The translations under genes were made by a program, and so were the position numbers. A stretch of DNA of 64,000 nucleotides from the IMG/VR virus record IMGVR_UViG_3300024341_000001; one strand, written 5' to 3'. This DNA comes from a virus. Its lineage: Duplodnaviria; Heunggongvirae; Uroviricota; Caudoviricetes. This document shows, in pieces, positions 18,040 to 18,262 of the stretch (within the stretch, counting starts at the first letter, position 1; every line of letters begins with the position of its first letter). The notes below the pieces were generated by a model. That model did no database searches and was not told the DNA's origin. It worked only from the letters and a program-made list of their open reading frames with translations.

Positions 18040-18262
18040 CTCGTTATATGCATGCAGCCGACCGACGCTTAAGCTGCACAGGGTGCCCTTAGACGTCTGT
18101 CATCGCGATCGGCGCCACCAGGATCTGGAGGACCATGGATCTCTGCCTGCACGCGATTTCCACGCCCGCGCGGCCGAGCCGAAGGCGGCGAGTCGCAAGA
18201 CGAGCAGGACGCGTGTATCTGGAAATCGCGTATTAAAAATTCCATTGCGTAACGCAATAGAA
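18040..18262. ncRNA. GC-rich structured element, candidate ncRNA (retron msr/msd-like or other)
   Basis: A local GC island of over 60% GC in a 35% GC genome. A 12-bp perfect inverted repeat (ACGCGATTTCCA at 18151-18162 and TGGAAATCGCGT at 18220-18231) encloses nested GC palindromes. The ORFs within it are Arg-rich and look like GC artefacts. Confidence 0.35.

Follow-up and report, generated by a model that had tools for sequence, protein, structure and literature searches.

A GC-rich island in the genome of an uncultured jumbo phage, lying beside a gene for a retron-type reverse transcriptase (RT), is on balance best read from its sequence as the template (msd-like) part of a second retron-type ncRNA, here called unit A (positions 17980-18303, minus strand), with the RT gene 550 nt downstream. 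A minor part of our confidence in this explanation hangs on a function of the template as bait. The most remarkable feature of the unit is its restriction-type palindromes, which are conserved and statistically strong across many phage lineages. In many related phages, the template is a natural 'polylinker' made up of restriction-type palindromes that do not repeat, a feature not previously described. Coordinates refer to the 64-kb stretch of DNA that was analysed (the window), which is part of a ~210-kb jumbo phage genome; the relatives are found on ~200-kb viral contigs.

Results

Composition of the Island

The original prediction of a GC-rich, palindromic island in an AT-rich genome was borne out. 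GC content was 0.58 over positions 18001-18200, with a peak of 0.66 over 150 nt, compared with a window mean of ~0.36 and 0.48 in the runner-up 200-nt bin, and window-wide binning placed both the highest GC content and the greatest wealth of 6-bp palindromes in the same 200-nt bin (18026-18232). Every palindrome that had been named was found in the sequence, and the perfect 12-bp inverted repeat (18151-18162/18220-18231) was verified; it grows to 13 pairs with a G-U pair and ranks first among only eight inverted repeats (11-nt seed, ≤150 nt) in the whole window. The open reading frames within the island (80 and 62 aa), which had been regarded as artefacts, matched no Pfam family and were unconserved in relatives, among which the tail of the island varies in length and sequence and hence is not coding.

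An Infernal scan of Rfam and a comparison with related genomes had been proposed as checks. The former gave no match for the island, with none of the 4227 Rfam covariance models reaching E ≤ 10 across positions 16000-20000 and, at gathering score, one tRNA as the only match in the whole window. The folding energy of the whole island was unremarkable on both strands (z = -1.4 and -1.0). Hence, the structural evidence comes from the comparison with relatives, not from energy. In the related genomes, the island recurs near the RT gene with its architecture kept and its sequences differing. It is single-copy in the window and, in the loci that were fetched, is never more than a few kb away from the RT gene.

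Architecture and Conservation of Unit A

Unit A (Table 1) is bracketed by a 10-nt flanking repeat, TATAGCTATA (18303-18294) and TATAGCTATG (17989-17980), which can form nine Watson-Crick pairs and one G-U pair and would correspond to a1/a2. When the 329-nt unit is folded, its MFE structure shows the retron layout, in which a1/a2 encloses msr stem-loops and then an msd stem-loop. A hairpin of differing sequence occupies the P1 position in L002, L004, L090, L091, and L094, the outer pairs of P2 show compensatory changes, and RNAalifold recovered P2 from an unbiased alignment. Hairpins that share the GCG-NNN-CGC core of P2 follow ORF81 and are part of the canonical msr. The a1' arm of the window lineage also reads as a palindrome of 12 nt and overlaps a weak sigma-70-like -10 match, so a protein-binding or promoter element is possible at this site instead. 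As a general phage promoter, TATAGCTATA was rejected, having six matches (≤1 mismatch) in the 64 kb, which is not above chance, three of them in this locus.

Table 1. Features of the retron locus, in order of position in the window
Feature	Position	Strand	Basis or remark
Retron-type RT	16549..17439	-	PADLOC retron RT models
Terminator-like hairpin + U8	17444..17475	-	Between unit C and RT start codon
Unit C, canonical retron msr-msd	17481..17613	-	Alignment with relatives; directly upstream of RT
Unit B, third short retron-like unit	17635..17737	-	Weak a1/a2 AUUAUA-G / UAUAAU
ORF81, conserved small protein between unit A and RT	17737..17982	-	Homologues in relatives
Unit A, putative a2' arm UAUAGCUAUG	17980..17989	-	Includes ATG of ORF81
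AT-rich spacer, array to a2'	17990..18025	-	Read directly; similar spacer in relatives
GC-rich tail, array of non-repeating restriction-type palindromes	18026..18149	-	Similar array in relatives
Long stem, 3' arm	18150..18162	-	Partner of 18220..18232
C(UUCG)G tetraloop hairpin GCC-UUCG-GCU within long stem	18177..18186	-	Recurs in relatives
Long msd-like stem, 5' arm	18220..18232	-	13 pairs with 18162-18150
P2 hairpin UUCUAUUGCG-UUA-CGCAAUGGAA, conserved, msr-like	18240..18262	-	In all close relatives
P1, small variable hairpin (AUCC...GGAU), msr-like 5' domain	18265..18284	-	In MFE fold of unit
Candidate 2'-OH priming (branch) guanosine, directly 3' of a1'	18293..18293	-	'A-G' after a1 in every lineage examined
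Unit A, putative a1' arm UAUAGCUAUA	18294..18303	-	Pairs with 17989-17980; overlaps stop codon of small upstream ORF
Small Cys-containing ORF, 61 aa	18299..18484	-	Conserved, directly upstream of unit A

GC islands with the same order of parts were found near the RT gene in relatives of 38-55% RT identity, and unit A was on the RT strand in all lineages. Ten distant lineages have the island bracketed by helices of 9-12 bp that are equivalent to a1/a2 and end in A-G (Fisher p = 8e-7 versus dinucleotide shuffles), with modest p-values at single loci (0.003-0.37). Their sequences all differ between lineages, e.g., CATAACTACA/TGTAGTTATG, GATGTTCGTA/TACGAACATC, and CCCAATTTACA/TGTAAATTGGG. At 11 of 16 loci, helices ending before a G were at least as long as those ending before another nucleotide, despite threefold fewer positions. 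The long stem also covaries: 11-13 of 15 lineages have a stem of 11-14 bp at this place, with unrelated sequences (Fisher p = 6e-11). It is this msd-like stem to which the 12-bp repeat of the original prediction belongs; the repeat is not the a1/a2 pair, which is formed by TATAGCTATA/TATAGCTATG. CUUCGG, whose C(UUCG)G loop is an RNA-specific motif, was observed within the long stem of 6 of 13 lineages, compared with an expectation of 0.02 per lineage.

In relatives, too, a palindrome array of this kind is situated between the long stem and a2. Close lineages carry ORF81 and the two other units between unit A and the RT gene, whereas in distant lineages unit A is located ~3 kb downstream of the RT gene. 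An intrinsic terminator follows a2 in L002, L137, L139, and L144, which are lineages without a following ORF.

Reverse Transcriptase and Neighbouring Units

On the basis of its sequence, the RT belongs to the retron clade. PADLOC retron RT models matched it at E values of 3e-71 to 1e-48, the closest solved structure was the retron Ec86 RT (E = 6e-37), and NF038233 (retron_St85_RT) scored 217 bits, slightly under its 235-bit cutoff. The columns of the catalytic YADD motif (RYADD) and of the retron-specific NAxxH (NAQQH) and VTG motifs were invariant in 28 RT homologues. Relatives' RTs align from residue ~43 on, and M43 of the listed 338-aa ORF is probably the true start. Searches of 50,697 phage records gave no RT homologue above 34% identity, and none was found in 185,579 species genomes. 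Scanning metagenome contigs with the RT alignment returned mostly generic retrons, as the patterns were too general, while an IMG/VR DNA pattern scan for a1'-P2 produced mostly chance matches, plus L100 and L103.

The original prediction of a retron msd-like stem or structured ncRNA was right in kind, but the island is not the canonical msr-msd, which is unit C (17481-17613). In that unit, a1 CCUUCUAUA (17613-17605) is followed by a G at 17604, a P2 hairpin AGUGCG-CUA-CGUACU (17580-17566), an msd hairpin at about 17535-17493, and a2 UAUGGAAGG (17489-17481), and the MFE fold has the classical retron shape. The a1/a2 helix of unit C measures 10-11 bp in relatives and has a different sequence in each; it is perfect in four of six, with one G-U pair in L090 and L094. 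A hairpin and T-run at the junction of unit C and the RT gene was visible in five of the six relatives.

Unit B has a P2 hairpin GAGACGCG-UUA-CGCGUUUU (17706-17688), and its a1/a2 is clearer in relatives than in the window (AAGCGTA/TACGCTT in L090, AACATACA/TGTATGTT in L093, and TCTAAATA/TATTTGGA in L004). A covariance model (R1) of the canonical unit 5' domain from six relatives recovered unit C of the window at 11.6 bits (E = 0.48) and missed units A and B. Hence, the likeness between the units is architectural and not statistically detectable by that route.

Homologues of ORF81 with 23-46% identity occupy the same position in eight relatives. A word-indexed homologue search returned ORF81 itself alone, and Foldseek comparison of a single-sequence AlphaFold model (pLDDT 76, pTM 0.37) with the PDB gave nothing below E = 0.36. 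ORF81 and the conserved 80-113-aa ORF downstream of the RT gene matched no fold and no family in Pfam, PADLOC, NCBIfam, or PHROG. The 61-aa ORF upstream of unit A also had no family match; its homologue ends at a1' in L090, L094, and L096.

The Palindrome Array

Unit A contains 14 palindromic hexamers, all different, together with 7 palindromic octamers, compared with about 1.2 expected. Those in the tail include CCATGG, GGCGCC, CGATCG, TCGCGA, GACGTC, CTTAAG, GCATGC, ATGCAT, and GAGCTC. The best 300-nt segment had 17 palindromic hexamers versus 5.5 ± 2.3 in dinucleotide shuffles (z = 5.0), and the densest 200-nt stretch of the 64 kb had 14 versus a mean of 3.85. Enrichment at z ≥ 5 was observed in 17 of 29 RT lineages, with 15-33 palindromic hexamers per 300 nt of tail (about 5 expected). 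In the most extreme lineage, 33 hexamers, 30 of them different, were packed into 300 nt (4.9 expected). Octamer palindromes were enriched four- to sevenfold in most units. The non-redundancy of the palindromes was significant in L097, L145, L146, L184, and L129, and 63 of the 64 possible hexamer palindromes were used somewhere among the lineages. Between the near-identical phages L002 and L123, differences in the tail create or destroy palindromes.

Three close lineages, L004, L091, and L002, showed little or no palindrome enrichment (L002 being weakly enriched). Interrupted palindromes of 7 nt were enriched in some lineages only (z = 2-3.4 in L096, L097, L146, L127, and L134), and not in the window. 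The array as hidden hairpin structure was rejected, mean folding z being only -0.9. The rest of the phage genome was not depleted in palindromic hexamers (1221 observed versus 1213-1295 expected), nor were the array palindromes those under-represented in the genome (p = 0.35). Restriction pressure is therefore unsupported from that angle. In the literature on phage retrons, on palindrome or restriction-site arrays in msDNA, and on multiple natural ncRNAs, we found no description of such a template; phages came up there only through a 'retron-like' RT domain of Staphylococcus jumbo phages, whose architecture is unrelated.

Discussion

Across lineages, unit A combines a conserved RNA architecture and a link to the RT clade with an enriched, non-redundant set of palindromes. 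Its putative transcription and reverse transcription would proceed as follows. The RNA would fold with a1 pairing to a2, and the RT would dock on P2 and prime from the 2'-OH of G18293. The array and, as the very first template, the AT-rich spacer (17990-18025) would be copied before the long stem, giving a multicopy DNA of ~250 nt. The template is predicted to measure about 240 nt in the window and up to ~750 nt in L094, and the predicted products of relatives 300-750 nt. As an RNA-DNA hybrid or in double-stranded form, the DNA would display its restriction-type sites as a decoy or sensor for the sequence-specific enzymes of the host.

The palindromes of the insert, 6-8 bp long, are of the type that Type II restriction-modification enzymes recognise, and we infer that the DNA copied from the template may be a bait for restriction-modification-type enzymes. 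Single-stranded DNA is not the normal substrate of Type II enzymes and, hence, an extra step (a hybrid or a second strand) must be assumed. We advance only tentatively the wider proposal that uncultured ~210-kb jumbo phages use the retron as counter-defence, with one RT, several tandem msr-msd units, and a fast-evolving polylinker whose cDNA would act as a universal decoy or a tripwire against host Type II restriction-modification. That this multicopy cDNA would carry up to 38 different restriction-type palindromes is put forward with the same reserve.

Alternative Explanations

We think it unlikely that unit A is instead a structured RNA that is not reverse transcribed and that acts as a cis-regulatory or RT-sequestering element. 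Its a1'/a2' helix would hide the start codon of ORF81 (and, in L097, also the Shine-Dalgarno sequence), which would make the translation of ORF81 and of the RT dependent on RNA folding or processing, while the long stem would be an RNase III site and P2 would titrate the RT. Such a role fits the position of a2', which contains or abuts the ORF81 start codon in the window lineage, L090, L094, L096, and L097, as well as the overlap of a1' with the stop codon of the upstream ORF, the perfect stems of 12-14 bp, which are plausible RNase III substrates, and the resemblance of P2 to an RT-recognition hairpin. It would, however, leave the palindrome array, its non-redundancy, and its rapid turnover unexplained, and distant lineages have the unit ~3 kb away from the RT gene, ending in its own terminator and without a following ORF81-like gene.

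Unit A could also function as duplex DNA within the phage genome, its RNA-like features being secondary. It would then offer sequence-specific enzymes of the host or phage a landing pad or a site to be sacrificed, promote recombination as a hot spot, or be a small, non-autonomous element with terminal inverted repeats. This we regard as improbable. The UUCG tetraloop, the covarying hairpins with G-U pairs, the consistent use of the RT strand, and the terminators after a2 all point to RNA, and the unit is single-copy in the window and, in fetched loci, occurred no farther than a few kb from the RT gene. Although it is only in duplex DNA that restriction-type sites are natural substrates, the phage would have no obvious benefit from clustering cleavable sites that its genome does not avoid elsewhere. 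The 9-12-bp inverted repeats that flank the unit, as in a transposable element, and the variable position of the unit relative to the RT gene between clades are the other observations in favour of a DNA element.

We give slightly less credence still to a sticky-end scaffold, in which the 6-8-mers would serve self-association of nucleic acids (networks or second-strand priming from palindromic 3' ends) and not protein recognition, and in which non-redundancy would prevent intramolecular hairpins. Hexamers extend to octamers more often than the 25% expected (7 of 14 in the window, 15 of 42 in L097, and 15 of 36 in L096), and the arrays are weakly folded, with all-different palindromes minimising intramolecular pairing. 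Yet duplexes of 6-8 bp are marginally stable, we know of no precedent for such a scaffold, and the idea is compatible with the bait model rather than exclusive of it.

It is very improbable that the island is an ordinary msr-msd with the 12-bp repeat as a1/a2, the alternative closest to the leading idea of the original prediction. The 12-bp stem spans only 57 nt, so that P1, P2, and the array fall outside it, and a canonical unit with a 9-11-bp a1/a2, G, two msr hairpins, and an msd hairpin already adjoins the RT gene in the window and six relatives; these facts outweigh the G-A after the 5' arm of the stem in five of six close lineages and the location of the island upstream of the RT gene on the same strand. 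Scarcely credible is a group I intron remnant, a homing-endonuclease or recombination target, a protein-coding gene, or horizontally acquired GC-rich junk, since, for all its foreign composition, open frames of 80 and 62 aa, and proximity to two homing-endonuclease-like genes, the island has no Rfam match at E ≤ 10, interrupts no gene (the flanking ORFs being intact), contains only unconserved ORFs without family, persists in relatives that lack the two endonuclease genes, and keeps its architecture across lineages of unrelated primary sequence.

Comparison with Known Systems

The closest relatives of the phage RT are those of the type II-A retrons Retron-Eco1 (Ec86) and Retron-Sen2 (St85), whose ncRNA has the same layout as unit A (a1, G, msr hairpins, msd stem, and a2). 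The phage gene order of ncRNA, small ORF, and RT resembles the msrmsd-rcaT-rrtT order of Sen2. Unlike these systems, the phage retron is a syntenic core locus of a lytic-type jumbo phage and not part of a bacterial defence island, has three tandem ncRNA-like units rather than one, and is without a recognisable effector; its RT scores under the NCBIfam family cutoff. Unit A further differs from them in the palindrome array of 100-560 nt between the msd stem and a2, and hence in a predicted product of 250-750 nt. Known msDNAs measure 48-163 nt, and the predicted length is, to our knowledge, far beyond any characterised msDNA.

T7 Ocr and ArdA are protein mimics of generic B-DNA that act on Type I systems. 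The array of unit A may serve the same end, early titration of restriction-modification enzymes, through a nucleic acid with Type II-type sites instead. Diversity-generating retroelements of phages likewise pair a phage-encoded RT with a nearby non-coding template. A retroelement of this kind was rejected here, as the RT is of the retron type, no second island copy (template/variable repeat) is present in the 64-kb window, and there is no Avd gene. A miniature inverted-repeat transposable element was also rejected, the island being single-copy in the window and near the RT gene in fetched loci.

Two engineered systems provide parallels. In 'multitron' arrays, one retron RT serves several msds per transcript (Gonzalez-Delgado et al. 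2023, PMC10370050); these are synthetic, whereas the multi-unit arrangement of the phage is natural and conserved in six close relatives (RT 49-55% identical). 'PretroDNA' is engineered retron DNA with protein recognition sites that binds or sequesters proteins in vivo (Lee and Kim 2023, bioRxiv 10.1101/2023.09.27.556556). It too is synthetic and has its sites in a double-stranded msd stem, whereas the sites of unit A are single-copy, lie in a region not predicted to be duplex, and would have a natural function.

Significance

The retrons known so far are systems by which bacteria resist phages, each with a single short template, and why their DNA has its particular sequence is for the most part unexplained. 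The retron described here belongs to large phage genomes, in which it is conserved and syntenic. It appears to have three templates, one of them moulded by selection into a compact catalogue of restriction-type sites without redundancy. An element under selection for many different palindromes is unexplained and easy to test, even should the functional reading prove wrong. If the cDNA is made, it would give engineered multitrons and retron DNA baits a precedent in nature and would represent a new class of anti-restriction or restriction-sensing strategy that relies on nucleic acid instead of protein, and the RTs may copy templates of 250-750 nt, a capacity useful in retron editing. Should the counter-defence reading be true, the locus would hold the first natural restriction DNA decoy, the first natural multi-template retron, and the first pro-viral retron.

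Island composition and the inverted repeat

The island, a GC-rich palindromic stretch, is the compositional extreme of the window, with a GC content of 0.58 in the 200-nt bin 18001-18200 and 0.66 in its best 150 nt, compared with a window mean of ~0.36 and 0.48 in the second-ranking 200-nt bin. The GC enrichment claimed in the original prediction was therefore borne out, every palindrome it named was present, and the perfect 12-bp inverted repeat was confirmed, extending to 13 bp with a terminal G-U pair and topping only eight inverted repeats (11-nt seed, within 150 nt) in 64 kb. 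Whole-island folding energy was ordinary on both strands (z -1.4 and -1.0), and no Rfam family matched. Taken alone, the island sequence is a compositional and palindromic oddity and does not prove a function.

A retron-type reverse transcriptase in a jumbo-phage neighbourhood

All genes around the island lie on the minus strand. The 338-aa ORF encodes a retron-type reverse transcriptase (RT) matching PADLOC retron RT models down to E 3e-71, its nearest solved structure being the retron Ec86 RT (E 6e-37); against NCBIfam retron_St85_RT it scored 217 bits, slightly below the 235-bit cutoff. The NAxxH, YADD, and VTG columns were invariant across 28 homologues. Also encoded in the window are a portal protein, a 2026-aa fused RNA polymerase beta/beta', a primase, and a Lon-like protease. 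Together with these phage genes, an identical RT on a 215-kb contig and homologues of 37-53% identity on viral contigs of 24-210 kb identify the carrier as an uncultured jumbo phage of ~210 kb. No RT more than 34% identical was found in the cultured phages searched, nor any close relative in the bacterial species genomes searched.

Relatives were fetched via the RT (42-55% identical to that of the window), and most were largely syntenic, sharing the order bpMoxR ATPase, VWA protein, small Cys-containing ORF, island, 81-84-aa ORF (110-130 aa in L096 and L097), RT, small ORF, and ~300-aa protein, which a vault-shoulder-like protein closed in several loci. Every relative carried a GC-rich island (0.60-0.73 vs 0.35-0.46) at the corresponding place. 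Side by side, the islands had an identical part order, with primary sequence kept only in short motifs. The two homing-endonuclease-like genes were missing from most relatives, where the island was nonetheless kept, contrary to the homing or recombination target originally proposed. The group I intron remnant, which lacked an Rfam match, was contradicted by the comparative data, as were the coding and junk readings.

The retron locus has the bpMoxR-type AAA ATPase and VWA-domain protein on one flank and, on the opposite flank, an 826-aa protein with major-vault-protein shoulder/Vault_3 domains; this gene set is unusual for a phage and is conserved in several relatives. The two endonuclease-like paralogues are an insertion separating the VWA gene from the retron locus, and both have a C-terminal DUF559/Vsr-like nuclease fold and N-terminal repeated helix-turn-helix; a third DUF559-containing ORF has repeated CxxC motifs. 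Between the paralogues, a ~215-nt stretch matches, at 70-90% identity, segments of crAss-like, Staphylococcus/Mammaliicoccus, and Clostridium phages that are either annotated as terminase large subunit or carry no annotation; in cr118_1, the sole record inspected, it falls in a gap that interrupts a helicase gene (CDS 42480-43229 / 43585-43803). This stretch matched no Rfam family; it probably represents the core of an intron-like mobile element that has travelled widely.

Features of the retron locus and its surroundings, by window position
Feature	Position	Strand	Remarks
Island	18040-18262		GC-rich, palindromic
12-bp inverted repeat	18151-18162 / 18220-18231		perfect
Unit A	17980-18303	minus	retron-like RNA unit
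a1' UAUAGCUAUA	18303-18294	minus	then G18293, then U-rich stretch
P1	18284-18265	minus	small hairpin
P2 UUCUAUUGCG-UUA-CGCAAUGGAA	18262-18240	minus	hairpin
Long stem	18232-18220 / 18162-18150	minus	encloses 57 GC-rich nt with a GCC-UUCG-GCU hairpin
Tail	18149-18026	minus	GC-rich; then AT-rich spacer
a2' UAUAGCUAUG	17989-17980	minus	includes ATG of ORF81 (17980-17982)
ORF81	17737-17982	minus	small conserved protein gene
Unit B	17635-17737	minus	shorter; directly after ORF81 stop
Unit B hairpin GAGACGCG-UUA-CGCGUUUU	17706-17688	minus	
Unit C (a1 CCUUCUAUA-G, a2 UAUGGAAGG)	17613-17481	minus	canonical msr-msd, directly upstream of RT
Terminator-like hairpin + U8	17475-17444	minus	precedes RT start
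RT ORF as listed	16549-17565	minus	338 aa
Small Cys-containing ORF	18299-18484		stop codon overlapped by a1' (18299-18303)
Endonuclease-like paralogues	18868-19845; 20162-21106	minus	
13-bp inverted repeat CTTTTAGTATATT / AATATACTAAAAG	19803-19815 / 19852-19864		perfect; spans start codon of 18868-19845
Third DUF559-containing ORF	14274-15113		downstream of RT
Intron-like stretch	19978-20194		between the paralogues
bpMoxR/VWA and vault-protein gene set	11262-13742; 21116-23535	minus	both flanks

Architecture of unit A

The layout of unit A is that of a retron msr-msd RNA (a1, G, msr hairpins, msd stem, a2), to which it adds a tail between the msd stem and a2. Of the msd-like stem or structured RNA originally suggested, a candidate retron-type template RNA stands; the simpler form, in which the 12-bp repeat itself is a1/a2, is unlikely, this repeat being assigned to the long stem. 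P2 was predicted by RNAalifold on an unguided MAFFT alignment, with compensatory changes in three pairs. In 11-13 of 15 lineages the long stem runs to 11-14 contiguous pairs, each time of different sequence (Fisher p 6e-11), and it contains CUUCGG in 6 of 13, where 0.02 per lineage is expected. A cluster of palindromes acting at the DNA level, with inverted repeats at its borders, is an alternative reading; the CUUCGG (UUCG loop) motif is stabilizing for RNA, not DNA, and the comparisons show that the RNA-type architecture, with its retron geometry and strand specificity, is conserved and tied to one clade of retron RTs in jumbo phages.

A rule derived from close lineages (helix ending in A, then G, 15-80 nt upstream of P2) was applied to ten distant lineages, and the best helix bracketed the island in nine, with pairs such as CATAACTACA/TGTAGTTATG, GATGTTCGTA/TACGAACATC, CCCAATTTACA/TGTAAATTGGG, CTAACTCATA/TATGAGTTAG, and AGCCAGCTCGCA/TGCGAGTTGGTT (combined p 8e-7 against dinucleotide shuffles). 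Helices before G were at least as long as those before non-G in 11 of 16 loci, non-G positions being three-fold commoner. Because p per single locus was modest (0.003-0.37), the case for a1/a2 rests on the ensemble and on positional consistency. An intrinsic terminator follows a2 where no ORF comes next (L002, L137, L139, and L144). In the more remote clades, unit A in its entirety, from a1/a2 and P2 to the long stem and array, lies ~3 kb downstream of the RT, not upstream, with the same internal order and strand.

The a1' arm lies on the upstream stop codon and a2' on the ORF81 start codon (in L097 its GGAG too), hence folding of the unit could gate ORF81 translation. A less likely alternative is that unit A acts in regulation or processing without being copied, a reading favoured by the overlap of a2' with the start codon and by stems that could be RNase III sites. 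On balance we lean slightly towards unit A being a retron-type template RNA that is reverse transcribed.

Two further units upstream of the RT

A textbook msr-msd was found, in the window and also in six relatives, within the 300-400-nt 'intergenic' stretch that separates ORF81 from the RT; it comprises lineage-specific a1/a2 of 10-11 bp, perfect or with one G-U pair (AAATCCCCACA/TGTGGGGATTT, CAAGTTGCACA/TGTGCAACTTG, AAAACCACACG/CGTGTGGTTTT, and others), a G after a1, two msr hairpins (the second GAGUGCG-NNN-CGCACUC), and then the msd hairpin. Between this unit and the RT start codon, a terminator-like hairpin and U-run were present in the window and in five of these relatives. Unit C, this msr-msd in the window, overlaps codons 1-42 of the RT ORF as listed; these codons are therefore spurious, and the RT most likely starts at M43 (17439), where all homologues begin aligning. 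Unit B shares its hairpin core with unit C, and its a1/a2 is weak in the window and clear in L090 (AAGCGTA/TACGCTT), L093 (AACATACA/TGTATGTT), and L004. The locus resembles a tandem set of three retron templates sharing a single RT, the island being the template portion of the first, which is also the largest. When a covariance model was trained on the relatives' unit C, it found that of the window with an E value no better than 0.48 and missed both unit A and unit B; given this weak result, we limit the claim to shared architecture and hairpin core rather than demonstrable homology of the units.

A palindrome array in the tail

With islands delimited by eye, palindromic hexamers exceeded dinucleotide shuffles in five of eight lineages (observed vs shuffled: window, 12 vs 5.2; L097, 32 vs 7.4; L094, 39 vs 14.5; L096, 14 vs 4.0; L090, 20 vs 8.1). 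An unsupervised scan for the best 300-nt stretch in each of 29 non-redundant RT lineages gave z of at least 5 in 17, with the maximum in L146 (33 hexamers, 30 different, 4.9 expected); the studied window had 17, 16 of them different, vs 5.5 (z = 5.0). Outside the array, 300-nt peaks in the same loci were usually 9-14, and 16-17 in L096 and L097. Non-redundancy was beyond chance in L097, L145, L146, L184, and L129, all 26 palindromes of L097 being different, which none of 2000 simulations matched. Whole units reached 38 different hexamer palindromes in 596 nt (L097) and 36 in 524 nt (L146), and 63 of the 64 possible occur in some unit. Palindromic octamers were enriched 4-7 times in most units. 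Sites frequently overlap (e.g., GTGCACGCGTACGGCCGGC), giving more sites per length, as in a cloning polylinker. The arrays show no strong folding (mean z -0.9), so hairpin formation does not account for the palindromes. The array could alternatively be a self-association scaffold; what the counts demonstrate is that selection has favoured a large variety of short palindromes, located where a retron RT would begin copying.

The array is frequent, not universal, because three close lineages (L004, L091, and weakly L002) have short tails with little palindrome enrichment. L002 and L123 are ~100% identical over most of 8 kb and differ in their island tails (L002 2660-2900) by a 35-nt replacement and point changes creating or destroying palindromes, with CTTAAG, ATCGAT, and AACGTT in L123 only; this comparison, although anecdotal, is consistent with rapid turnover. 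A second variable patch lies at L002 6200-6800. Within the long stem of L145 (6520-6655) are four tandem 33-nt repeats, each with CCTAGG, a site almost missing from arrays elsewhere.

Relation to known retrons and proposed function

Judged by RT sequence and RNA layout, the locus is a retron, closest to the Ec86/St85 (type II-A) group. Unlike the described retrons that our search found, it is carried in a jumbo-phage core locus, has apparently several template units, and has a much longer template whose content is a palindrome array. None of the thirteen retron types classified by Mestre et al. 2020 has such an RNA (PMC7736814), and our search of 8 million papers and preprints found no description of a phage-core, multi-template, long-template, or palindrome-array retron.

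The RT would dock on P2 and prime from G18293, yielding cDNA of the spacer, array, and long stem that would span ~250 nt in the window and up to ~750 nt in L094. In engineered systems, several msds on one transcript were copied by one RT (PMC10370050), and retron DNA was usable as protein-binding bait (bioRxiv 10.1101/2023.09.27.556556). These examples show both ingredients to be feasible. Array-type palindromic sites were not avoided in the phage genome, and the search for an effector identified none, with ORF81 giving no family or fold match; both points weaken the mechanism proposed here. Type II restriction endonucleases, like their methyltransferases, recognize different 6-8-bp palindromes of this kind, and a multicopy nucleic acid with one of each site would be the expected look of a broad-spectrum bait. 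Type II enzymes require duplex substrates, so the product would have to act as an RNA-DNA hybrid or become double-stranded; palindromic 3' ends could in principle prime a second strand between two copies. There are bacterial retrons in which the msDNA acts as a tripwire that phage nucleases and methylases trigger. We advance a restriction-bait function of the array tentatively, as a rather doubtful possibility, whereby the bait may serve as a decoy that titrates host enzymes or, by analogy with bacterial retrons, as a sensor that would release an effector.
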